From the IMG/VR virus record IMGVR_UViG_3300008116_000137, positions 1 to 58,132 of that record: a stretch of DNA of 58,132 nt. One strand, given 5' to 3'. Each line of letters opens with the position of its first letter. The stretch's first letter is position 1. The notes under the pieces are model-generated. The model was not told where the DNA came from. It saw nothing but the letters and a program-made list of their open reading frames with translations, and did no database searches. Positions 3,366 through 53,127 of the stretch are shown piece by piece. Source of the stretch: a virus (taxonomy: Duplodnaviria; Caudoviricetes). The position numbers and the translations under genes were made by a program.

Positions 3366-3782
3366 ATGACAGATGAAGCTAATAATGATCCTATTGCAAA
3401 TGCAATGAATATGATGCCTGTGACTAGTTTTATTGACCAATTAGAAGCTAAAGGTCATGACGATTCTGCACAGAATGACTTTGAAAAAGCAAGAGCAAAT
3501 CTTTACGAAGTTATTGATGTAGGCCAAACATCTTTAATTAAATTGGCAAAGATAGCCGAATCATCTCAACATCCAAGAGCATTTGAAGTCTTATCTAATT
3601 TGATGAAAACGATAGTTGATGCAAACAAAGATTTGTTGACACTTCAAAAACAAATTAGAGAAATAGAATTAAAAGACGAACCACATAATGAAAAAGCAAA
3701 AACAATTAACAATAATCTTTTTGTCGGTTCAACCGCAGAACTTCAAAAAATGATACAAAGTTTAAATAAAAATGAACGATAA
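3366..3782 (+). CDS. gp16: Terminase small subunit
   Basis: HPRAFEV and NNLFVGSTAELQK motifs; precedes the large terminase. Confidence 0.92.
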   Translation: MTDEANNDPIANAMNMMPVTSFIDQLEAKGHDDSAQNDFEKARANLYEVIDVGQTSLIKLAKIAESSQHPRAFEVLSNLMKTIVDANKDLLTLQKQIREIELKDEPHNEKAKTINNNLFVGSTAELQKMIQSLNKNER

Positions 3783-5382
3783 GGGGTATAACGGTAATCA
3801 ACTTTTAAAAAGATCAAATGAAACTATTGAATGGACACCTGATTTAGTTCAAGAATATATAAAGTGTTCATCAAATCCTGTTTATTTTGGTGAAAAATAT
3901 ATTAAAATTGTCAATGTTGATAAAGGTTTAGTACCTATAAAAATGTATCCATATCAAAAAGATATGGTTATGTCTCTAGCAGAAAACAGATTTACTATTG
4001 TTGCAACTGCTCGTCAGGCAGGTAAAACCACAGCTATTGTTGCTGGTATTCTTTGGTATATCATTTTTCATCCAGAAAAAACTGTTGCTCTATTGGCTAA
4101 CAAAGGCGATACAGCAAGAGAAATCCTTGGTCGTATTCAATTAGCGTATCAACATCTTCCAAAATGGCTTCAACAGGGTGTCGTAGAATGGAACAAAGGT
4201 TCATTTGTTCTAGAAAATAACTCAAGAGTTATTGCCACAGCGACATCTTCTGACGCCATTCGTGGTTATTCGATTAATTTATTGTTTATTGATGAGGCAG
4301 CGTTTATTGAAAATTGGGATGAGTTTTTCACGTCAGTTTATCCAACTATTTCTTCCGGTATATCATCAAAGATAGTTTTGGTATCGACACCGAATGGGTT
4401 AAATCATTTTCATAAAATGTGGGTGGATGCTGAAAGAGGAACAAACGGTTATAAACCTATCAAGGTTATGTGGCAAGATGTTCCTGGTAGAGATGAAAAA
4501 TGGAGACAAGATACGCTTGCTTCCATGGGTAACGATCAAGAAAAATTTGACCAAGAATATGCTGTAGAATTTTTAGGTTCATCTGGCACACTTATTGCTG
4601 GTTGGAAATTAAAAGAATTGGTTTATATGACACCATTGAATGAAAACAATGGGTTAAGTCAATATATAAAACCAGAAAAAAATCATGTGTATATATGCGT
4701 GGTCGATGTTTCCAGAGGTAAAGGTCTAGATTATTCAGCATTTCAAATAATAGACGTATCTCAAATGCCGTATATACAGGTATGTGCATATAGAGATAAT
4801 ATGACAACTCCTGCTGACTATGCCTCTATAATACATACAATGGCAAAAACATACAATAATGCCAGTGTTTTAGTAGAAATTAATGATATTGGCGGTCAGG
4901 TTGCCGATACTTTACATTATGAATTTGAATATGAAAATATAATGTATACAGAAAATAATGGTAGAATGGGTAAAAAAATATCTGCTGGATTTAAAAGTCA
5001 AGTAGATAGAGGTATCAGAACCACTAAAAATGTCAAATCGATTGGGTGTTCAATGCTTAAGCTTTTGATTGAACAGAACCAATTGATAATAAACGATCAT
5101 AATACGATATCAGAATTGAACACTTTTTCCAAGAAAAATAATAGTTTTGAGGCAGAGGTCGGTTGTCATGACGATCTGGTTATGTGTCTTGTGTTATTTT
5201 CTTGGGTTTCTGATCAAAATTATTTCAGAAATATTGTTGACATAAATACTTTGATGCAACTTAGAGATAAGTCAGAAGACGAATTGTTTGAAGAATTGTT
5301 ACCTTTTGGTTTTATGGATGATGGCTTCGATGAAAATGTTACTATAGATGATAATGGCGATAGATGGATGGCAGTTGATTAA
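3772..5382 (+). CDS. gp17: Terminase large subunit
   Basis: RQAGKTT Walker A, LLFIDEAAF Walker B, STPNG, DVSRGKGLDYS and HDDLVM nuclease motifs. Confidence 0.97.
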   Translation: MNDKGYNGNQLLKRSNETIEWTPDLVQEYIKCSSNPVYFGEKYIKIVNVDKGLVPIKMYPYQKDMVMSLAENRFTIVATARQAGKTTAIVAGILWYIIFHPEKTVALLANKGDTAREILGRIQLAYQHLPKWLQQGVVEWNKGSFVLENNSRVIATATSSDAIRGYSINLLFIDEAAFIENWDEFFTSVYPTISSGISSKIVLVSTPNGLNHFHKMWVDAERGTNGYKPIKVMWQDVPGRDEKWRQDTLASMGNDQEKFDQEYAVEFLGSSGTLIAGWKLKELVYMTPLNENNGLSQYIKPEKNHVYICVVDVSRGKGLDYSAFQIIDVSQMPYIQVCAYRDNMTTPADYASIIHTMAKTYNNASVLVEINDIGGQVADTLHYEFEYENIMYTENNGRMGKKISAGFKSQVDRGIRTTKNVKSIGCSMLKLLIEQNQLIINDHNTISELNTFSKKNNSFEAEVGCHDDLVMCLVLFSWVSDQNYFRNIVDINTLMQLRDKSEDELFEELLPFGFMDDGFDENVTIDDNGDRWMAVD

Positions 5383-23144: not shown

Positions 23145-23437
23145 GATATTTTGATTTTGAGTCTTTAGCAATTATGAAGCAACATTATATAAGTGGATTA
23201 ATTATATTTTTTGCATTTGTACTTTATTATGTTTTGGTGAGAAGATTAGATCGTGAATAAATTCCTAAAATACTGTAGATATTCCAACATTCAGATAGCA
23301 TTAAATTTAAATCCATTGACATGGGGGTTCGCATATGATTATGGTGGACCAACACAGATGGACCCTGGATTATATCATTTGACATTCAAATTTATCTGTG
23401 TTAGAATGTCTTTCGTTTTTGATGATGGGAGTTGGTA

Positions 23438-23925
23438 GTGAACATCTTTTATATCGATGCTGATCCTATTCAAGCTGCACAGTGGATGGTGGATAAACAT
23501 GTTGTTAAAATGATTCTTGAATCAGCACAACTGTTGTCCACCGCTCACCGTGTTCTTGATGGTATTGAAAGTATTGGAACAAGTCCTTCTGGGAGAAGCA
23601 AGAAGATATGGGAGTTCATCCATCTGCTATATGGTGCCGCAGTAGCATCCAGAATTATGATTGGTTGGTAGAACATATGTTTGCTCTTATGGGCGAATAT
23701 ACCCATCGTTATGGTAAAACACATAAATGTCAGGGCGAATTGTCATATATGCTCCAATCGCCACCAAAGAAACTTGAAGACTATGATTGGACACCCATGC
23801 CTTCATGTATGGATGATAAGTATATTATTTCAAGTGATCCTTTGATTAACTACCGTAACTATTATATTAACGGAAAGTCCGATCTTCATAAGTGGACTAA
23901 ACGTGAAAAGCCTGAATGGATTTAA
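23438..23925 (+). pseudogene. Pyrimidine-dimer glycosylase (DenV/PDG-like) family gene split by a deletion-frameshift near 23616
   Basis: N-half MNIFY..DKHVVKMILESAQLLSTAH and C-half HPSAIWCR..NY.WL..EYTHRYGKTH..YRNYY lie in different frames. Confidence 0.75.
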
Positions 23926-29591: not shown

Positions 29592-29702
29592 ATTTTATTC
29601 ACCTTTCATATTAGAAATAATCAATCGTGGAACCATTTCCACGATGACAATATAATAATCCATGAAGCACTCCTTGTCAAGTGGGTAGTCGAATATTTTT
29701 TC

Positions 29703-29803
29703 GACCTTTGGACCTTTAGACCTTTGAACCTTACAATTAGCCTTGACCTTGACCTTATTGTTACAACCTTCTGAGTTATCTTCTAACCTAAGAATATAAC
29801 CTT
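29703..29803 (+). repeat. ACCTT/GACCTT short-repeat array
   Basis: 8 ACCTT copies, first four at 8-bp spacing. Confidence 0.85.
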
Positions 29804-30085: not shown

Positions 30086-30761
30086 TTATTTGATTTTTGA
30101 TTATTGAAATAATTTTGTTTTTGATGACAAATATTTGAATGTTTTTTAACAAACATAAGCAAACGAATTGACAACATTTTTTGATTTATGGTTAAGGTTG
30201 TGTATACATTTGTTTGCATTCGTTGACATACGTAGTCATTCGAATATATACTAGATTTAGTCTATTAGTTTAGTAGAATAGTATTGTGTAGCCATACGAT
30301 TTTTGGTCGTATGACGACACAGATTTTTGGTGGTCAGACGATTTCACTGTTGCACGGTAAAAATATTTTGTCAAAACTGAAAAAAACTCTTGAACGGTTC
30401 GAAAAATTGATTATACTACAAAAATCGTCAGAGACAAAATCAAGGTGAAACGGTATGTTCGGTGATGTAATCGTAGGATTGTCTTTTGCAATCCCTGTAG
30501 TTTTGGCAATCATATCAATCATCTCGGGAGAATGAAAATGAAAGTCTATGTAGGAATTTATGAACATCGTCATGGTAATGAGGTGCGAGTGTTTGATAGC
30601 TATGACAAGATTGAGGCATGGCGTCAATCTATCGCAGACGAATATTTTGATGGTGAATTTCGTGGAGTAGAAAAGCCTGAAACTATAAACGAAGTAACTG
30701 ACTATTATTGGGATAACATTGAAAATGAATGGTTCAATGTAGAAATCACGGAAGTAGAATA

Positions 30762-40116: not shown

Positions 40117-42602
40117 CAATATTCTGGGTAGTAATAATCATATTGACTGCAATCATATGGGCCATTATACTAGGTGGTAGGGGTCCAGGAAATGGAGTAG
40201 GATAATGACACATGAAGACGCATTGGAACTGATTAAGATCATTAAGTCTATTGACACGGGATTATTCAACATTTGGATTATTCTCATGGCGCATATGTTT
40301 ATATCAGCAATGAAGCGGTAGCTCAAATGAAAATCACCATTCCTATGCCTGATGTGAGTATGTGGCCCATTTTTATGTCAGAGGGCTTTATTGTGCTTGC
40401 CTTAGTCATAGGATGGTGTTACTATTACTTATTGGCTCGTTACGGAACTATGAGGGTCGAATGACAAAGATCACTAAAGCATTCACAGTAGAAGACTATG
40501 TGACTATTGATTGTGAGAATTTGGAAGCATTTAGACATCAAATTGATAATTGGATTAAACGATATGGTTCTAATGCATTTTTTACATTTGAACCGCATCG
40601 TTATTATGATGATGATGTTCTGGTCATCAAGGCGGTGCGTGAAGAGACGGATGAAGAATATGCTATTCGAATGAAAAGGAATGAAGAACAAAGGCTATCC
40701 CAAGAAGAAAAAGATCGCAAAGAATATGAGCGTCTAAAAGCTAAATTCGGAGAGTAGTCATGAACATGTATGACATGATAGAGAATATCGAAAACATGGT
40801 CAATACTGTAGTAAACAGCATGACTGAAGTGAAGCCTGAACAATTAGGTCTTGACAAGCGGTCGGCATATAGACTATATGTATCGGAAGAGGCGATTGCT
40901 ATTTCGAAGAACCAGGATGGTTCTCTTCAGTATTATGGAGGGTTTGAGTATGTTGACAAGAACAGTCGTATAGAGGTTGGCGACTATGTGTTTTATACCG
41001 CCGATGATGAAAGAGTAGCTGGCAGCATTCAATTTTACGAGGATGCGAATGCAAATGCAACTGAACAAGTCTGATCCGTTATACTTGTATCATCGTATTG
41101 ATGCCTGTTCATCAATTCATGAAGCATATAAGCTAGTGTATCAGTGGGTCAAGCAGGATCATATCACGCATAGAGAGATGGGTGATCTGGTTATCTATGC
41201 ACATGATTATTTTCACCATGGGATGAAGTGACATGAAGATCAAGACATATAAAACAGTCAAGCAAGAGGTTGAGATTGAGGTAGATGATCGCATCTATGG
41301 TGCTGATAATGTTGGTGACGGGAATGCCTGGATGATTGCAAACATTATTTTGAATGGTTGTCTTCCAAAAATGATTGACAGTCTTCATGGGCAAGAGTAT
41401 AACGATATCTTCTTCGTTTGTGACAAGATCAACGAAGCATTTCAAAAGGCAGATAGAATCCTGGAGATTATGAAATGAGCAACTGGACATATACACTCAA
41501 CTTTCGTGATCTTATCACAGATGAACCCCTCAATGAGGATCAGTCGATCATTCGTGCGAAGTCTATGGCTAAACGGTTATCCTCATTCATCAATGGGTTT
41601 GATGATAAGGATGATGATTATATGGTATATGAATTGTGGGATGTATATGAGTTATTGAATAACTCCATTTCTGTGGATGAAATCAATGAGGGTCTGGATG
41701 CACTATATGATGTGGCAGACACGTATAGAATTTGGGTCAAGTGAGGGAGAATAATATGCACATCTTCTTTAAGATTATCTTTCCTGTTTTTATTATTATA
41801 TGGCTTGCGATTGCAGGAACAATAGTGTATACAGGTATGAGAGAGCATGATCTTATGGTGGCCTGTTCTGCTTCTGGTGATCCCAAGAGTAAGGAATGCT
41901 TTCAGTATGGTGTATATATTGGCAATCTTCGCACTGTCAATATGAATATTACTAATGGAGAATAATATGTCAGAGAATGAAAGATTAGAACTCCTGGATC
42001 AGATTAAGTGGCTAGAGGCACAGGTAGAGGCATTGGAACTTGAATTGTCTGATGCGAGGGAAATGATTAAACAATTGAATCAAGAGAATAGAAAACTACA
42101 GGAGGCATATAGTAATGCTTCATGGTCTATTGAAAATGGGAGATGGTAATATGTCAAAGATTAAGGATATGCTTTCTAACACTGACTATGATTTGGCGGA
42201 TGAGATTACCATTGCCAATCTTCTTTCCTCCTATGATAATATACTTCATAATGAGGCGCATTCCTGGACACATCCAGATGATATTGCATATTACGAAGAA
42301 ATCAAGACTGCTCTTAGAAGGGTCATCAAGCATTATTCTACAAATGGTGATTATCTAATTGAAAAGGTAATTCGAAACAGTAAGGATAAGGTTGCATCCA
42401 GACTAGCCAAATATCGTATTGCTACCATGGGAAACAATAATGAATAAAGAACTTTCAATCAAGACTATTGAAGATGTTCTGAGACGCTTTCTTATATTAG
42501 ATCAATATAAAGATAAACGATATGTATATAATTCAGGTAGATCATATAATGTATATGATATCGCAGAAGAAATCTATAATGAATTAGAAAAGAATACCGT
42601 TG

Positions 42603-42680
42603 AACCTTTGGACCTTGATACCTTTAAACCTTAATGACCTTTTATACCTTTACTGACCTTTAAGACCTTTGATGACCTTT
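42603..42680 (+). repeat. ACCTT/GACCTT short-repeat array
   Basis: 9 ACCTT copies at 8-10 bp spacing. Confidence 0.9.
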
Positions 42681-42889
42681 GAAAATAATATAACCCTTAC
42701 CATCAATCATCATATATCATTACTATTGAATGAAAGTATAGTGTATTGGTATGAAGACAATAGTAGTAAAAAAATAAAATATTTTTGTTGATTGTCGTAT
42801 GATGTATGGTATGATATAGGAATGATATAGGAGAAGAATAATAGTAATATGTGGTCAATATGAACATAGAATGATAATAGTGGTATTTA

Positions 42890-42902
42890 TAAGTCATTGA
42901 TT
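42890..42902 (-). promoter_or_regulatory. IHF consensus site
   Basis: Reverse complement AATCAA-TGAC-TTA matches WATCAANNNNTTR. Confidence 0.6.
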
Positions 42903-43115
42903 TATATAGTGTTGTATGGAATAGGTCAGTGGTGTTGACGTATATTTGTGAAATTGTATTACAAGTTTGTGTGAATTATATCATAGTTTATATGATTAAA
43001 ATCCTCGGTTGTAGAGTGTAATAAAATCAATAACATACGACACACATTTTCTGCACAAGCACGGTATCACAGCCACCAAAATCTGTCAAGCACAGACATG
43101 GCAGTTGTATACAGT

Positions 43116-43348
43116 CGAATGTGAACTTGAACTGAACAATAACAAATGTCAACTGTAGCTTGGCCATACGAATGTCAACTAAAGCATAGCCATAAGCGTT
43201 TATGTAAACACCGAATGTCAACTCAAACATAACCATAACGAATGTCAACTTGAACTGTGCCATAAGCGTTTATGTAAACACCGAATGTCAACTTGAACTG
43301 TGCCATAACGAATGACAACTGTGGCTTGGCCATAGTGTATATGTAAAC
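43116..43348 (+). repeat. Array of seven ~27-bp direct repeats (CGAATGTCAACT-N8-10-CCATA), some followed by a GTTTATGTAAAC block
   Basis: Units begin at about 43116, 43143, 43169, 43212, 43239, 43282, 43309. Confidence 0.9.
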
Positions 43349-43513
43349 TTTTCGAATAGTCTATCGAAAAAGTTAAGTATACATTCCGGCGATATTAGTC
43401 TATCGATTTTGCATAGTATACATTCCCCCGATACTTGAACTGTGCCATATGGCGGTATACAAACAGAATAGCACTGTATACATTCGATGTCAAATGGCCG
43501 GTTTTCGTGTTTT

Positions 43514-43796
43514 GTTCCCGTTTTGTTCCTGGTTGGTTGCTGTTTTGTTCCTGTTGGCGGTATCTGTTTTGTTCCCGTTTTGTTCTAGTTTACAATCAAT
43601 TTTCTTTAAAATGTTTACGTAAACAGGGTCGATTTTTTTCGTTCTCGTTTTGTTCTCTTGTAGTATACATTCAATTAAGTATACGTAAACACGATTGTAT
43701 GCATTCATAGAATAGTTTACGTAAACAAGGTTATGTTGTATACATTCAATTAAGTATACGTAAACATGGGTATGTTTTTTTGTTCTGTTTTTGTTC
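43514..43796 (+). promoter_or_regulatory. Cluster of alphaproteobacterial LexA (SOS) boxes GTTC-N7-GTTC
   Basis: Perfect boxes at 43514-43528, 43571-43585, 43641-43655, 43782-43796; near-match at 43536-43550. Confidence 0.75.
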
Positions 43797-43845
43797 TCTC
43801 TTTTAGTCTACAATCAAAAAAATGAAAAAAAAATAAAAAATGTTA

Positions 43846-43875
43846 TTGACAGGGGCGGGGCGAATAGCATATAAA
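43846..43875 (+). promoter_or_regulatory. Early sigma70-type promoter with A-tract UP element
   Basis: A-tracts, then TTGACA and a TAGCAT/CATATA -10 region. Confidence 0.6.
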
Positions 43876-43901
43876 AAGACATGGTAACGGGAGACAAGCA
43901 A

Positions 43902-44552
43902 ATGGTAAAGCTCTCTAATACGTCGAAACTAAACGCAAAATCCTGGTCGTTAAATGCAGGAAAGACATGTCCAGGTTCTATTGATCCTGCCACAAAAGAG
44001 GTTTTGCCGGTTTGCAGCGGCTGCTATGCTAAGGGCGGAAACTATCGCTTTTCCAATGTCGTCAATCCCCGCAATTTTAATCAGGCCGATTGGAAACGTC
44101 CAGAATGGGTTTCCGACATGGTTGCGGCTCTAAAAACGGAAAGATTTTTCCGTTGGTTTGATAGCGGCGATATCTATCATCCCGCACTGGCATTTAAGAT
44201 TTTTCTTATATGTCAACAAACCCCATGGGTTTCGCATTGGATACCTACCAAGTCGTATACAATCCCGAAAATCCGTGCGGTATTGGACAGAATAGCAGCA
44301 TTGCCTAATGTCGCATTGCGCTTTTCGTCACCTAATGTAAACGGTGATTTTATTCCTGGTTTACATGGTAGTGTCGTTATTCCTAACGATACTTTTGAGA
44401 CAAGCGCCGACATAGTTTGTGGCGCTTATACTAGGGGCGGAAAATGCGGCGATTGCTTTGCATGTTATGACAAGAATGTAAACGTGGTTGCATATGTCGC
44501 CCACGGCAAGGTTATGCAATCAAAAATAAAAAAGATGAAAATCGCCGCCTAG
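43902..44552 (+). CDS. GP88-family (radical-SAM-like) phage protein, ends KIAA
   Basis: TSKL..SWSL.A..TCPGS..C.GCYA..G.Y, FRWFDSGD, HWIPTK, C..C..C motifs. Confidence 0.75.
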   Translation: MVKLSNTSKLNAKSWSLNAGKTCPGSIDPATKEVLPVCSGCYAKGGNYRFSNVVNPRNFNQADWKRPEWVSDMVAALKTERFFRWFDSGDIYHPALAFKIFLICQQTPWVSHWIPTKSYTIPKIRAVLDRIAALPNVALRFSSPNVNGDFIPGLHGSVVIPNDTFETSADIVCGAYTRGGKCGDCFACYDKNVNVVAYVAHGKVMQSKIKKMKIAA

Positions 44553-44749
44553 CTATTGACAAGCCGGGATTAATCCTATAAAATGGATTGGTCCCGGTTT
44601 TTTAGTATACAATTAAAAATGTTTACGTAAACGCTAATTTTATTTTAGTATACGTAAACACGAATTATTTTCAGTCTACAATTATTTTTTTCTTGCAATG
44701 TCGTTTTGGATATGCGAAAACATAATGGTCGAAACGATAGGGTGACGAG

Positions 44750-45076
44750 ATGGAAAACGAAACGACGAAAATTCTTCGATGGAATTCCAGCGGTGATGTC
44801 TGCCATAATGGTTGGACCAATTATGCAACCTGGAAAGTCAATCTAGAACTGTTGGACGGTCTAGACAGTGACTTTTTCGACGGGAACGATGTTGCTGATC
44901 TAGCAGAAAGCATCAAGCTTTACGTGGAAGAATATCTTGAAAGCGAGGGAAACGATGTTACGTTAGACTTCGCTCTTGCTTTCATTGCCGATGTAAATTG
45001 GCACGAAATTGCAGAAGATATCTTGGCAGGGGAAGAAGAAGCAAAAAAAATAAAAAATCTTGAAAATGCCGCTTGA
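44750..45076 (+). CDS. Conserved acidic phage early protein, ends ENAA
   Basis: NGWTNYATW.V.L and VNWHEIAE motifs. Confidence 0.75.
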   Translation: MENETTKILRWNSSGDVCHNGWTNYATWKVNLELLDGLDSDFFDGNDVADLAESIKLYVEEYLESEGNDVTLDFALAFIADVNWHEIAEDILAGEEEAKKIKNLENAA

Positions 45077-45144
45077 CAATATCTGGAACCTGGTCTATAT
45101 TCTGATCATAGGCAAACGGCCTATAGCACAAAAGGGAAAACACC

Positions 45145-45384
45145 ATGATTAACGTGAATGCGAAGAACACGTCGAACGTCACCACGATTAAGAACCATTT
45201 GAACAATTATGGTTCTATCACGACGCAGGAGGCGTTTCAGTATTATCGCATGTCTGGTGGAACTGTGACGAAGGTTATTTCCATTCTGAAAAAGGAAACT
45301 AACTTGCCGATTAACTCACTCTTTATCAAAGACGGTGTTGACGGTCGTCGCTTCAAAAAGTATATTCTCAATATCGCCGCTTAA
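45145..45384 (+). CDS. Winged HTH (HTH_39-like) protein, ends NIAA
   Basis: I..HL...GSIT..EA...Y......IS.LK pattern; own promoter TTGACA at 45073. Confidence 0.7.
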   Translation: MINVNAKNTSNVTTIKNHLNNYGSITTQEAFQYYRMSGGTVTKVISILKKETNLPINSLFIKDGVDGRRFKKYILNIAA

Positions 45385-45391
45385 CAATATC

Positions 45392-45413
45392 AGGGCGGGT
45401 TAGTGCCCGCCCT
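45392..45413 (+). terminator. GC-rich hairpin after the HTH gene
   Basis: agggcggg-ttagtg-cccgccct. Confidence 0.65.
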
Positions 45414-45589
45414 ATTCTCTCTAACAGGATGCAATGCGATGGATTATATTGACGATTCAAAACGAGTGCAAATGTTGTCGATGGCTGCTGTTGTCGTCGG
45501 GTTACTGTTGGGCGTTGTTATGGTTGCCGCCCTTGGTTAACCTTTCTGGACCTTGCTAGACCTTGGCAATACCTTTGGGGGAAATAAAA

Positions 45590-45763
45590 ATGCGATACAA
45601 GACAGAATATGAAATCGAAGCCGCCGCCGAAAGAAAGATGAATGCATTAGACAGGGAATTGACGACAGGTCTAATCAGTCAGGAAGAATATGACGAAAAG
45701 GCTTGCGATATTGAACGTTGGGCAGATTATCATTATGAACGATTGGCAGATGAAGTCTACTAG
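45590..45763 (+). CDS. Small acidic hypothetical protein
   Basis: MRYKTEYEIE..G.ISQEEYD; followed by a terminator. Confidence 0.6.
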   Translation: MRYKTEYEIEAAAERKMNALDRELTTGLISQEEYDEKACDIERWADYHYERLADEVY

Positions 45764-45790
45764 TATTTAAGCGGGGCGATTAGGAAAGGC

Positions 45791-45820
45791 AAGGCGGGCA
45801 AGATATTGCCCGTCTTTTTT
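45791..45820 (+). terminator. Rho-independent terminator
   Basis: aaggcgggcaa-gata-ttgcccgtctt + T run. Confidence 0.85.
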
Positions 45821-46038
45821 ATTTGTTAGTGTTTACAATTAAGCTATATCATAGCAATAAAAACAAAAAGCATAAACTGTGCTATTCTATTTTTAATCAG
45901 ATTGCGTTTTGTTCAAAATTAAGCGAAGGCTTGGCTGTAAACGGTGACGCTGGCTTAAACTGTGGCTTGGCTGTAAATGGTCGGTCGGGTGGAACCGTGG
46001 CCTTGACCTTTGGACCTTCGTTATCTAAAACTTGACCA

Positions 46039-46196
46039 TAGGGTCCCATCCGTGGGTTCCCAATAAGGTACCGGTTTCTAAATTATATGGAAAACATTTT
46101 ACCTTCAAAAACAAAAAAAGTTACTATAGGGTCCCATAAACGGGTCCCCTTTTTCTACAGAAAAACCTATACTAGGGTCCCATATTAGGGTCCCAT
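46039..46196 (+). repeat. GGGTCCC(AT) repeat cluster
   Basis: TAGGGTCCCAT x4, plus GGGTCCCC and GGGTTCCC variants, in an intergenic region. Confidence 0.85.
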
Positions 46197-46233
46197 AAAT
46201 ATTTTAAAATATTCTTCATATAGGTAAATTTCC

Positions 46234-46695
46234 ATGAAAACTTTTAAACAGTTCATAGAATCAACAGAGTATTTGTCAGAGTTATTTGACAAACCTACCA
46301 AGTACAAATCTATGTCTCATAAAGAAATGGGACTCAACAGAGAAGAAAGTGCCAGTGGTAGATTTCATGGATATCATTTCAAGCACAATAATCAATCTTT
46401 TCGTGTAGGCGTATATCATCATCCAAATGGCCATGCAGAAGTAGATTTTGATACTGGCGGATCACATGATATTACCGGAAAGCATGGTCATTCTTCTCAT
46501 AAGATATTTTCTTCTGTTCACAAAATACTAAAAGATCATTCAGACAAACATAAGCAATTATCTCATTATAGATTCTATTCAGATGCAAGTCAACCCTCTC
46601 GTGGAAAACTATACCATAAATTGACAAAAAAGATGGGTGGTGTTACGAAGAAGGGTGAAGATGATCACGAACATATTGTTCCTATAAAAAGATAA
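46234..46695 (+). CDS. His-rich putative internal head protein
   Basis: MKTFKQFIE N-terminus typical of T4-like capsid-targeted proteins; CATAAATA late-like promoter upstream. Confidence 0.6.
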   Translation: MKTFKQFIESTEYLSELFDKPTKYKSMSHKEMGLNREESASGRFHGYHFKHNNQSFRVGVYHHPNGHAEVDFDTGGSHDITGKHGHSSHKIFSSVHKILKDHSDKHKQLSHYRFYSDASQPSRGKLYHKLTKKMGGVTKKGEDDHEHIVPIKR

Positions 46696-48667: not shown

Positions 48668-49216
48668 TGAAGTTGGTCGCAGCAATGGTTTTCATGTGTT
48701 TCAGTGGCACATGTCTGAAGTATGATGTAGAAGTAGAAAACAAAGCTTGTTCATACGGATCGTTCAAAGGACGATATATGGGTATGGACGCAACATTAGG
48801 AATAAAGTGTCATAAATGACAACAATGGAAACAGAAAAGAAGTATGTCATAGCCTGGAAATCAAAGAAAACTGATTTTGAGGGTCAAGGGGAAACTTTGT
48901 TTACTTTTGAAAGTGCTACTATTTACTGTGAAGAGTTAAACAATGATTTTCCTTTTTTGGAACACTGGCCAAAAAAAGTCATTGAATAAAAATGCGGCAT
49001 ATATAATTAACACAGATAATAAAGGTGAAAATATATGCAAAGAGCCAGTATGTTTGAAATTTATTCTAGTATGCCGATACCTCATTTGGAATATCTGGAT
49101 GATTCGGCATTTTTAGTAAATGTTCTATTTTCGTTCTTTTTAGGTGGGTCTATCGGTATTATATTATCTTATGTTATTTTTGAAATCATAAAAATAATTA
49201 AAGAATAAGAGGTCTC

Positions 49217-51076: not shown

Positions 51077-51841
51077 ATGATTACAACAAATACTGCAAAG
51101 GTTGCAGTTGCAGAACAGTCAGAAGTAGTCGATCTTCGTGGAATGTGGATTGGTTTAGGTCTATTAAACACATTCTATCTAATTGTCAGAATTTATGAAC
51201 AAGTATACGGTTGGAGGGCCGGTCTTGATTCATTTGCTCCAGAGTTTCAGACATATTGGATGTCTATTCTCTGGACAGAGATTCCACTTGAACTAGTATC
51301 AGGACTAGCACTTGCCGGATATCTTTGGAAGACAAGGGATCGTGCAATTGACAGCGTGGCTCCTCGTGAAGAGATGCGCCGTCTTGTTACACTAGTACAA
51401 TGGTTAGTAGTATATGCAGTTGCAATTTATTGGGGTGCATCTTTCTTTACTGAACAGGATGGAACCTGGCATATGACAGTAATTCGTGATACTGACTTTA
51501 CACCAAGTCATATTATTGAGTTTTATATGTCATATCCAATTTACTCAATTATTGCAGTTGGGGCTTTCTTTTATGCTCGTACACGTATTCCATATTTCTC
51601 ACATGGATATAGTCTTGCATTCTTGATTGTTGCTATCGGTCCATTTATGATTATTCCAAACGTTGGTCTTAACGAGTGGGGTCATACATTCTGGTTCATG
51701 GAAGAACTATTCGTAGCACCTCTACATTGGGGCTTCGTGTTCTTTGGTTGGATGGCATTAGGAGTATTTGGTGTAGTTCTACAGATTCTAGGTAGAGTAC
51801 ATTCTCTATTAGGTAAAGAAGGTGTCAATCTTCTAACTTGA
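51077..51841 (+). CDS. pmoC: Particulate methane monooxygenase subunit C (auxiliary metabolic gene)
   Basis: GLDSFAPEFQTYW, EQDGTWH..RDTDFTPSHI, NEWGHTFWFMEELFVAPLHWGFV; Methylocystis/Methylosinus-type sequence. Confidence 0.97.
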   Translation: MITTNTAKVAVAEQSEVVDLRGMWIGLGLLNTFYLIVRIYEQVYGWRAGLDSFAPEFQTYWMSILWTEIPLELVSGLALAGYLWKTRDRAIDSVAPREEMRRLVTLVQWLVVYAVAIYWGASFFTEQDGTWHMTVIRDTDFTPSHIIEFYMSYPIYSIIAVGAFFYARTRIPYFSHGYSLAFLIVAIGPFMIIPNVGLNEWGHTFWFMEELFVAPLHWGFVFFGWMALGVFGVVLQILGRVHSLLGKEGVNLLT

Positions 51842-51847
51842 CAAAAT

Positions 51848-51920
51848 TGCGGGTGGTAGGTATAGTTATCTTGCCGGTTTCATACGCCGGTAAAAGTGGG
51901 GGCAGTTCCCACACCCGCTT
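51848..51920 (+). tRNA. Atypical tRNA with CAT anticodon (Met/fMet-like), non-canonical D and T loops
   Basis: Acceptor gcgggt/acccgc, anticodon arm ccggt-ttCATac-gccgg, T arm gtggg-ggcagtt-cccac. Confidence 0.6.
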
Positions 51921-52004
51921 CATAGCTTCCACGACGGGGAACTTTCGTCAGCCAAATAGGTTTTCTGTTATCCTATGGAAGAAAAACAGACAAGTTTACG
52001 GAAT

Positions 52005-52100
52005 TGGTCAGTGGTGAAAGAGTAGACACGGCGGAACTCGCTGCTGTTATGATACTAGTCGGATAACAGCGTGTAGGTGCAAGTCCTACCTGACCTACCA
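52005..52100 (+). ncRNA. tRNA-like RNA with CCA end, long variable arm and no canonical anticodon loop
   Basis: ggtcag/ctgacc acceptor + ACCA, T arm gtagg-tgcaagt-cctac, long ctgttat/ataacag arm. Confidence 0.6.
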
Positions 52101-52107
52101 AATATAT

Positions 52108-52183
52108 GGACTCTTAGCTCAATAGGTAGAGCATCGGACTTTTAATCCGCTGGTCCTGGGTTCGAATCCCAGAGAGTCCTCCA
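52108..52183 (+). tRNA. tRNA-Lys(TTT)
   Basis: Cloverleaf, ctTTTaa loop, TTCGAAT, CCA. Confidence 0.93.
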
Positions 52184-52208
52184 TTATAAATAAGTTAAGT
52201 TAGTATAT

Positions 52209-52283
52209 TGGAGTGTGGCGCAGCGGTAGCGCAGGTGACTGTTAATCACTTGGTCGCAGGTTCGAATCCTGCCTCTCCAGCCA
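52209..52283 (+). tRNA. tRNA-Asn(GTT)
   Basis: Cloverleaf, ctGTTaa loop, TTCGAAT, CCA. Confidence 0.93.
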
Positions 52284-52288
52284 GAATA

Positions 52289-52376
52289 GACTATCACGCC
52301 TTTCGTAGAAGCGCACCAGATAGTCAGGGGATGGACGCCACAAATAGTCCCGTGAGGGTCCACGGTTAGCCCTCTT
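52289..52376 (+). ncRNA. Structured RNA: hairpin(s) plus 3' pseudoknot
   Basis: gactatc/gatagtc stem; ccgtg/cacgg stem whose gaggg pairs with downstream ccctc. Confidence 0.45.
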
Positions 52377-52389
52377 TTTATTAACAGGA

Positions 52390-52752
52390 GTGAACATGAA
52401 GAAGTTTGTGATTGTTTTTATGATGGTTGTTAATGCTACAAATGCTTATGCACAGTATTTTGCACCTGTTTATATTCCTCCACCTGTTCCAATCCCTCGT
52501 TGGTGGCAACAGGGTGCTATTCCAGTAAGAGAAAGACCAGAATATGCTCCTTTACCACCACCTCCTCAAGAACAAGTTCCTGTACCAGTTCCAGAACCAG
52601 TTATTGTAGAAAAACCAGTTGTTATTGAGAAGAGGATACCGGTAGCTGTGCCAGTTCCTACAAGGAGACCTGTGTGCACAACGTATCCAGACCCATGGGA
52701 TACTTTTGGATACATTTTTGGTGATCCATTTATGATCACTACATGTTACTAA
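52390..52752 (+). CDS. Secreted proline-rich protein
   Basis: Signal peptide ending AYA; PPPP/VPVP tracts; C-terminal Cys pair. Confidence 0.7.
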   Translation: MNMKKFVIVFMMVVNATNAYAQYFAPVYIPPPVPIPRWWQQGAIPVRERPEYAPLPPPPQEQVPVPVPEPVIVEKPVVIEKRIPVAVPVPTRRPVCTTYPDPWDTFGYIFGDPFMITTCY

Positions 52753-52762
52753 ATACAATAAT

Positions 52763-52838
52763 GCTGGTGTAGCTCAGAAGGTAGAGCAACGGATTTGTAA
52801 CCCGTAGGTCGTCAGTTCGATTCTGGCCACCAGCACCA
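52763..52838 (+). tRNA. tRNA-Thr(TGT)
   Basis: Cloverleaf, ttTGTaa loop, CCA. Confidence 0.92.
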
Positions 52839-52850
52839 TAACAAGGTTAT

Positions 52851-52925
52851 TCGGGGATAGTTAAATTGGTATAACGTCGGATTTTGGTTCCGTCTTTCTA
52901 GGTTCGAGTCCTAGTCTCCGATCCA
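52851..52925 (+). tRNA. tRNA-Gln(TTG)
   Basis: Cloverleaf, ttTTGgt loop, CCA. Confidence 0.9.
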
Positions 52926-53052
52926 AACAGGATTATTAATATGGATAATAGACAACATACGATTTCAGCAATTATAAAAATTGTTAGTTTTTTTGCTTTG
53001 ATGATTATTTCTGGTTTTATTTTACAGGATATATATTCATTAGGTTAATAAT

Positions 53053-53127
53053 GCGGATGTAGCTCAATGGTAGAGCAGCAGCCTTCCAAGCTGAATACGA
53101 GGGGTTCGATTCCCCCCTTCCGCTCCA
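53053..53127 (+). tRNA. tRNA-Gly(TCC)
   Basis: Cloverleaf, ctTCCaa loop, CCA. Confidence 0.92.

Follow-up and report, generated by a model that had tools for sequence, protein, structure and literature searches.

Control of phage transcription by host LexA is textbook knowledge for temperate phages, with CTXphi and the tum system of coliphage 186 as examples, and T4-like cyanophages, reportedly those of Sullivan et al. (2010), carry sites for other host regulators, namely PhoB boxes at pstS/phoA and NtcA sites. T4-type phages are also known for mobile early-promoter cassettes (PeSL), which are repeated between the small early genes of the hyperplastic region. According to an excerpt of PMC6182141, the temperate Bacillus thuringiensis phage GIL01 uses host LexA directly. 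Here we describe an array of GTTC-N7-GTTC direct repeats, the form of an alphaproteobacterial LexA operator, in a T4-like phage contig of the IMG/VR collection (record IMGVR_UViG_3300008116_000137). The window analyzed is the full 58,132-bp record (GC content ∼35%), and all coordinates refer to it. Like the sites of GIL01-type phages, the candidate LexA sites of the window lie in a phage control region, where they would tie transcription to the SOS response; the temperate phages, however, have their boxes at lytic promoters, whereas this phage is T4-like and presumably lytic and has its boxes upstream of a promoter. It would resemble the cyanophages in that the gene expression of a lytic T4-like phage follows host physiology, but with LexA as the candidate regulator, DNA damage as the signal, and an array instead of one site. 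The literature searched contained no description of LexA-type sites for a lytic T4-like phage, and in a term search of the main text of the pmoC-phage paper PMC7674155, the words LexA, SOS, and promoter were all absent.

The GTTC-N7-GTTC motif occurs 8 times on the two strands of the window, compared with 1.46 expected from 100 dinucleotide shuffles, of which the maximum was 5 and none reached 8. Four perfect boxes lie on the + strand at 43514–43528 (box 1), 43571–43585 (box 2, GTTCCCGTTTTGTTC), 43641–43655 (box 3, GTTCTCGTTTTGTTC), and 43782–43796 (box 4, GTTCTGTTTTTGTTC). When the interval 43500–43800 was shuffled locally (n = 20,000), 19,476 sequences had no box, 509 had one, 15 had two, and none had three or more. 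This interval contains 9 GTTC tetramers (shuffle mean, 3.05) and 8 copies of TTTTGTTC (shuffle mean, 0.16). The four-box cluster greatly exceeds chance expectation at both scales, the window and the interval.

A longer unit, (G)TTTTGTTC(Y), underlies the boxes and is present nine times, at 11-bp spacing, within 290 bp. The TTTTGTTC octamer occurs 13 times in the window, with 8 of these copies in 43510–43796, all on the + strand, and GTTTTGTTC occurs 8 times on the + strand (6 inside the array) and 0 times on the − strand. Aligned as yyG-TTTT-GTTC-y, the nine units have an invariant GTTC (9/9) and variable flanking bases, and each bears a T4–T7 tract in helical phase. Tandem Repeats Finder reported an 11-bp period with 7.3 copies at 43504–43585. 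The first group of units (43503–43550, + strand), which contains box 1, consists of five half-sites in one 11-bp register (TTTC 43503, GTTC 43514, GTTC 43525, GTTG 43536, and GTTC 43547), three of which match fully whereas two carry one mismatch each. Three of the four groups have no more than a pair of phased units. Three further boxes with one mismatch stand in register beside the four perfect ones. The initial annotation, made from this DNA alone, had listed the four perfect boxes with their spacers, the additional half-sites in the 11-bp register, and a GAAC-N7-GAAC site at 43123–43137. The boxes were all found where it had placed them, and the register could be read directly in the first group. 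The GAAC-N7-GAAC site is likewise present but is not a member of the array, as it sits in another repeat family (GAATGTGAACTTGAACTGAAC; TTGAAC units) and has no T-rich unit. A box at 49122 is apparently within coding sequence.

The affiliation of the phage and its host was examined from its genes, almost all of which are on the + strand. A Pfam scan of 85 open reading frames (ORFs) identified a fragment of a T4-like myovirus, with structural genes (neck, gp15, terminase, sheath, tube, portal gp20, prohead protease, scaffold, and gp23) and DNA and regulatory genes (UvsY, UvsW, a gp55-like sigma factor, gp46/47-like nuclease subunits, clamp loader, and RegA). These are followed by a long series of small ORFs and then by pmoC (51077–51841; PF04896, E 1e-108). 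The phage PmoC has up to 93% amino acid identity to genes on Methylocystis/Beijerinckiaceae contigs, and its best 80 genome loci are nearly all from Methylocystis, Methylosinus, Methylocapsa, Methylocella, or unnamed Alphaproteobacteria. Solved PmoC chains fell into two groups when compared with the phage protein, one at 488–520 bits, which we take to be the alphaproteobacterial one, and the other at 334–340 bits. Because of the PmoC identity and the best genome loci, an alphaproteobacterial methanotroph is well supported as the host. Both the T4-like character of the phage and the Methylocystis-type host, which had been proposed at the outset from pmoC, thus agree with the gene content.

We then compared the array with LexA operators of this host group. 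The lexA and recA genes were located in five Methylocystis/Methylosinus genomes via pmoC loci, and the DNA upstream of them was read. All five lexA genes were preceded by GAACGCA...GAAC, a GAAC-N7-GAAC site, 72–111 nt upstream of the match, and GAAC(A/G)AAAAAAGAAC preceded recA in 4/4 complete loci; the fifth recA match was partial and had no box. Reverse-complemented, the recA operator is the same as box 4 of the phage except for one spacer base. In one genome (G002), 12 of the 75 listed boxes were chosen by eye for AT-rich spacers and their neighbor genes annotated. The ssb gene was preceded by GAACAAAAAAGGAAC, other boxes preceded a DNA_pol3_alpha (dnaE-like) gene and a comM-like gene, one followed a UvrD-like gene, and two flanked radical-SAM genes, with six of the 12 boxes having no link to repair. 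The host recA and ssb operators have the form GAAC-A-rich-GAAC, which is the reverse complement of the phage unit.

A wider comparison gave a similar picture, in that TTTTGTTC-N3-TTTTGTTC had 26 matches in 19 of 301 Alphaproteobacteria genomes versus 3 for the backwards control. The 12 loci fetched for this motif included five directly upstream of lexA, a umuD-umuC pair, two umuD-like genes, and a dnaE-like gene. A consensus of GTTC-N7-GTTC/GAAC-N7-GAAC is stated for the Caulobacter LexA operator in a passage of bioRxiv 10.1101/2025.01.26.634973. Given the host recA, lexA, and ssb operators and the 26 versus 3 enrichment, the phage unit is, by sequence comparison, a genuine operator form in Alphaproteobacteria and specifically in the inferred host group. 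The assignment of GTTC-N7-GTTC to alphaproteobacterial LexA, on which the initial annotation relied, is therefore borne out by recA (4/4), lexA (5/5), and ssb.

The array is situated in an ORF-free, repeat-dense control region of 1.2 kb (42685–43880), between a small ORF ending at 42634 and a GP88-family gene (43902–44552, + strand; PF17338, E 2.3e-29). The region contains no plausible ORF but 13 direct-repeat families and 11 inverted pairs, and an Rfam search of 42300–46400 gave no match up to E = 1 inside 42685–43880 and a single weak match at 45386–45454 (E 0.98). The GP88 gene likely starts at ATG 43902, which follows GGGAGA at 43889–43894, the MVK start being also used in the relative L354. 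It is preceded by a strong sigma-70-type promoter, TTGACA-N18-TATAAA (43846–43875, + strand; −35 at 43846–43851 and TATAAA at 43870–43875), with an A-rich tract at 43812–43845 in front of it. A leftward promoter-like site, TTGACA-17-TATTCT with TG (43465–43493, − strand), scored 10/12 in a consensus scan and adjoins the first group of units; a perfect box ends 20 nt before its −35, and no convincing − strand ORF was found downstream of it.

The dominant conserved motif of the early promoter cassettes in this lineage is a palindromic 12-mer, GT(T/A)TA(C/T)GTAAAC, which always occurs with AGT(T/C)TACAAT just upstream of the promoter. Nine copies are present in the window, seven in the control region (43198–43765; starts at 43198, 43268, 43337, 43613, 43679, 43715, and 43754) and two in the next intergenic cassette (44621 and 44648). 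The layout of a cassette is 12-mers, box, AGTYTACAAT, and promoter. Box 3 stands 16 nt after the 12-mer at 43613–43624 and box 4 stands 16 nt after that at 43754–43765 (repeat family D6), boxes 2 and 4 are followed by AGT(T/C)TACAATCAA, and a conserved upstream element, AGTCTACAATCAA (43805–43817, + strand), lies ahead of the rightward promoter. A second copy of this element, AGTTTACAATCAA (43587–43599), directly follows box 2, and elements of the AGTCTACAATCAA type also precede the promoter at 44673 and promoters in L354. The cassette at 44553–44750 has the standard arrangement of a terminator, two 12-mers, AGTCTACAAT, a T-run, and then a promoter. These cassettes resemble those of the PeSL type in being repeated promoter cassettes but differ in bearing the 12-bp palindrome, the AGTYTACAAT element, and, in some, LexA-like boxes.

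The 12-mer is probably the operator of a phage regulator, and this regulator is perhaps a small winged-helix protein. A candidate binder of one of the repeat families is encoded by a small ORF at 45145–45384 (+ strand), whose homologue in L354 (2404–2610) is of the winged-helix type (HTH_39, 21.8 bits versus a cut-off of 21.3); the window copy itself reached just E 0.05, and it has 43% identity over 76 amino acids to the copy in the viral contig L250. A terminator role for boxes 1 and 2 was considered and ruled out, since neither has a complementary arm upstream, unlike the box of L354 at 4214.

To place the array among relatives, we compared related loci. The closest relatives of the GP88 gene, with 75% amino acid identity, are on the metagenome contigs L354 and L355, which have many ATGTAAAC/GTTTATGTAAAC copies and a AGTTTACAAT element upstream of GP88; the 12-mer stretches of L354 are at 1100–1480, 2280–2300, 3620–3920, and 4240–4300. 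L354 carries two T-rich boxes in two other cassettes of like build, one of them between 12-mers (GTTCTTGTTTTGTTC), and these box sequences recur on L250, which has an alpha-type pmoC 91% identical and a third box beside the end of an AT-rich ORF. Thus, what these relatives conserve is the 12-mer system; the LexA-like box is optional and has been amplified in the window phage. The 7-bp spacing, the conservation of which in relatives had been at issue, is kept in L354 and L250 but at other sites. We found no nucleotide homologue of 42650–43900 in isolate phages or in 108 viral loci (80 with pmoC and 28 with GP88) and no array in the GP88 neighborhoods of the 28 viral loci (≤56% identity). Among 49 metagenome GP88 loci, two or more boxes anywhere were present just in L354 and L374, none of them upstream of the gene.

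Taken together, these data lead us to favor, tentatively and with something less than even confidence, the reading that the array consists of host-LexA operator-type sites acting in cis on phage early transcription. The array would have arisen as the (G)TTTTGTTC(Y) unit was duplicated locally within the region that controls phage early promoters. When infection begins and one phage genome meets the full LexA pool, the sites would be occupied, and bound LexA would modulate the adjacent promoters, namely the leftward promoter-like site at 43493 and/or the rightward promoter at 43846, from which the GP88-family cassette is expressed. Once LexA is cleaved in the host SOS response or diluted over many phage genome copies, this expression would change. 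Both LexA binding and an effect on transcription are predicted here from sequence. For LexA speak the consensus, spacing, and T-rich spacer, which match the host's own operators exactly, the placement in promoter cassettes, and the failure to find a phage binder common to the window and the other array-bearing contigs. The persistence of the unchanged array in strain variants from other studies speaks for it as well.

Several observations weigh against host LexA as the binder. The first concerns position and orientation. The phage boxes are like the recA, ssb, and lexA operators of Methylocystis/Methylosinus in direct repeat, 7-bp spacing, and T-rich spacer, but host operators occur singly or in pairs, lie next to or across the promoter, and show GAAC..GAAC when the coding strand is read, as did 14/14 host and alphaproteobacterial operators; the phage has four perfect and additional partial boxes, at least 49 nt upstream of the −35, reading GTTC..GTTC on the strand of the downstream gene. 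No box overlaps the strong rightward promoter, and the nearest, box 4, ends 49 nt before its −35, in line with the ∼50 bp given in the initial annotation. Just for the leftward promoter-like site, which is weakly supported, do the boxes read GAAC..GAAC as host operators do. Second, the unit is conserved over 9–10 of 11 bp, including a G and TTTT that precede the first half-site of each pair and so fall outside the LexA box. Third, double boxes were not enriched in 401 Alphaproteobacteria genomes (31 versus ∼56 for the backwards control).

The remaining points come from other phages. No GTTC box is upstream of the GP88 gene in L354 and L355, and the second box of L354 falls on a terminator hairpin (its 3′ arm and T-tract) and may be fortuitous. 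Counted over whole records, GTTC-N5-TTGTTC occurred 6 times in 17 alpha-type pmoC phages (3 of them in L250) compared with 8 times in 9 gamma-type ones. In the pmoC loci examined, 56 alpha-type and 24 gamma-type, no box cluster came within 10 kb of the gene, and four essentially complete alpha-type pmoC phage genomes have 0–1 T-rich box each. We also counted boxes in 22 isolates (13 with a named alphaproteobacterial host, 8 with other hosts, and DSS3_MAL1 without a written host), including the T4-like relatives phiM12, phiN3, Mosig, and HTVC008M picked from a capsid search; counts were at the level of the backwards control, and none had two boxes within 300 bp. The distribution of boxes among phages is sporadic, and an array is common neither to the other pmoC phages nor to the 13 isolates of alphaproteobacterial hosts.

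The strongest alternative, which we regard as possible but doubtful, is that a DNA-binding protein encoded by the phage uses the units as iterons or operators, for transcription control or at an origin, and that the LexA match is a coincidence of the 11-bp helical period and the GTTC core. The conservation of the unit beyond what GTTC-N7-GTTC needs fits a phage-protein iteron just as well, the control region is crowded with other repeat families, for which separate binders must exist, and the small winged-helix gene 1.3 kb downstream is kept in relatives. That gene, however, tracks the conserved 12-mers and not the variable GTTC array, and the extended unit is the form present at host recA/ssb and alphaproteobacterial lexA/umuD operators. 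No initiator gene was found among the 85 window ORFs scanned, the contig being a fragment of a T4-like genome.

A precedent for such iterons, and hence a further point against LexA, is provided by Escherichia coli phage P4, whose annotated "ori type 1" repeats, TGTTCACC, are bound by the alpha protein. These repeats of a phage with a non-alphaproteobacterial host resemble the array in being short GTTC-core direct repeats, 9–11 bp apart and clustered in noncoding DNA, and one pair even has GAAC-N7-GAAC spacing. The window units differ in their T-rich 5′ flanks and in having C/T after the GTTC, not the ACC of the P4 repeat. No homologue of P4 alpha was found in 5 array-bearing contigs (one 96% complete), which is weak evidence, and a literature search on the P4 octamer returned primers only.

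Arrays in other viral contigs bear on the same question. A scan of IMG/VR for TTTTGTTC-N3-TTTTGTTC gave at least 120 loci, 16 of which passed a several-unit filter, and ten were inspected. Their arrays, often GTTCAC(G/C)TTTTGTTC, lie beside other repeat families and strong promoters, and those in L045, L060, and L076 are followed by A-rich tracts and promoters. There are several arrays per contig, on one strand only in G006, G007, G009, and G312 and with copies also on the other strand in G008, G310, G311, and G313. Their occurrence at several intergenic sites, with a position 0.1–1.4 kb upstream of terS/terL in 6/6 contigs holding both, would suit a phage-encoded binder. The array-bearing contigs represent at least three unrelated phage groups; the nearest isolates of L320 and L319 are Pelagibacter, Roseobacter, Acetobacter, Ruegeria, and Rhodobacter phages, and those of L323 and L403 have mixed or non-alphaproteobacterial hosts. 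We take these arrays as evidence neither for nor against a LexA connection. The protein families common to the window and the other array-bearing contigs are just a DenV-like enzyme and a methyltransferase, with no common candidate binder, which speaks against a phage protein.

It appears unlikely that the sites act as a decoy, in which replicating phage genomes with 4–6 sites each would sequester LexA, so that recA, ssb, and further SOS genes of the host are de-repressed although the DNA is undamaged. The several near-optimal, clustered sites, which resemble the host recA/ssb operators and do not overlap a strong promoter, would suit such a role, and titration by repeated transcription-factor sites has been demonstrated in a synthetic yeast system, according to an excerpt of PMC3322331. 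In the same improbable scenario, a multi-site LexA sink would serve as a switch coupled to copy number, so that one genome would be silenced or tuned, and hundreds would strip LexA and turn on recA, ssb, and translesion genes. The relatives, however, have few boxes (one or two, or 1–3 in L354/L250), the four essentially complete alpha-type pmoC phages have at most one T-rich box, the boxes hold fixed places in promoter cassettes (family D6), and recombination genes of the phage itself, UvsY and UvsW, are present in the window. Since the boxes sit in promoter cassettes, as do the single boxes of L354 and L250, a cis-regulatory role of LexA fits better than a sink.

Least probable is a bent-DNA architecture without a specific protein, in which tandem duplication would have produced phased T-tracts 11 bp apart upstream of promoters: the T4–T7 tract of each unit, the A-rich, UP-like tract and strong promoter that follow the array, and the like arrangement in L045, L060, and L076 would agree with it, but curvature alone does not need a GTTC invariant in 9/9 units with variable flanks, and phasing is limited to a pair of units in all but one of the four groups.

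Strain variants were sought in sequencing runs, of which 18 had at least half of the sampled words of the stretch (20 rows from 11 studies), with no RNA run listed among them. Contigs from three DNA runs and from X19 (labeled RNA, probably DNA) were aligned to the stretch. X2 and X5 were identical to the window across the array. X7, from a different study, gave a 614-nt contig over 43302–43916 with 7 other letters and a 1-nt deletion at 43825; six of the seven differences are listed, at 43350, 43356, 43852–54, and 43857, and those at 43852–54 and 43857 change promoter spacer bases and leave the −35/−10 hexamers unchanged. The GP88 gene of X7 was ∼7% divergent from 43919 on (43919–44545; 21/296 and 10/150), mostly at third codon positions. 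These results indicate that the array is stable in the wild across strain variants of other studies. The abrupt loss of near-identity at the promoter spacer may point to a recombination junction, a mosaic at the promoter cassette as in PeSL-type elements, rather than to selection; the X7 pattern could reflect constraint but could also reflect such a junction and is not taken as evidence of selection.

Some further features of the window and of the contigs compared with it are recorded here. Six tRNA genes (Met, Lys, Asn, Thr, Gln, and Gly; 51848–53127) lie directly 3′ of pmoC, and a 4.6-kb contig in a Beijerinckiaceae metagenome-assembled genome (L149) has a pmoC 93% identical to the phage gene and may be a phage contig binned with the host. 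The ORF at 30729–31322 matches phrog_757 (DNA methyltransferase, E 8e-72), and its homologue adjoins an array in L406. The DenV-like pyrimidine-dimer glycosylase is represented by two overlapping ORFs, 23432–23671 and 23608–23925 (region 23432–23925), both of which match one ORF in L320 and L406, so that a frameshift or sequencing error may be involved; this UV-repair gene co-occurs with LexA-like sites in one phage. Short tandem repeats stand at small-gene ends, with GACCTT(T/G) at a ∼9–10-bp period in the window (42600–42684, 29699–29756, and 45540–45570) and TGACCAAC repeats, different in sequence, at the corresponding gene-end position in L354 (655–700 and 3170–3215). The sequence TAGGGTCCCA occurs four times within 160 bp at 46039–46200, and a GGGTCCCATCCGTGGGT(T/C)CC element is common to this region and to L250 (3195–3220). 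In two unrelated contigs, L319 (5720–5790, 7575–7650, and 9650–9710) and L322 (5795–5850 and 6455–6510), the arrays are followed by a conserved ∼60–100-nt element of their own, GGATTCCGCC...GTTTCCTGACCTC or a CGCCCGTGACGGCGGG hairpin; because each array has such a following element, the arrays of these contigs are parts of larger repeated modules.

If LexA binds the array, large lytic phages of slow-growing environmental hosts would monitor or manipulate the SOS state of the cell, analogous to cyanophages that read phosphate or nitrogen status, and the sites would make early-gene regulation in uncultured methanotroph phages accessible to testing. Should the binder prove to be a phage protein, the region would nonetheless bring together, in compact form, the regulatory motifs that this lineage uses. 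Through its putative LexA sites, the phage may read or disturb the damage alarm of its host.

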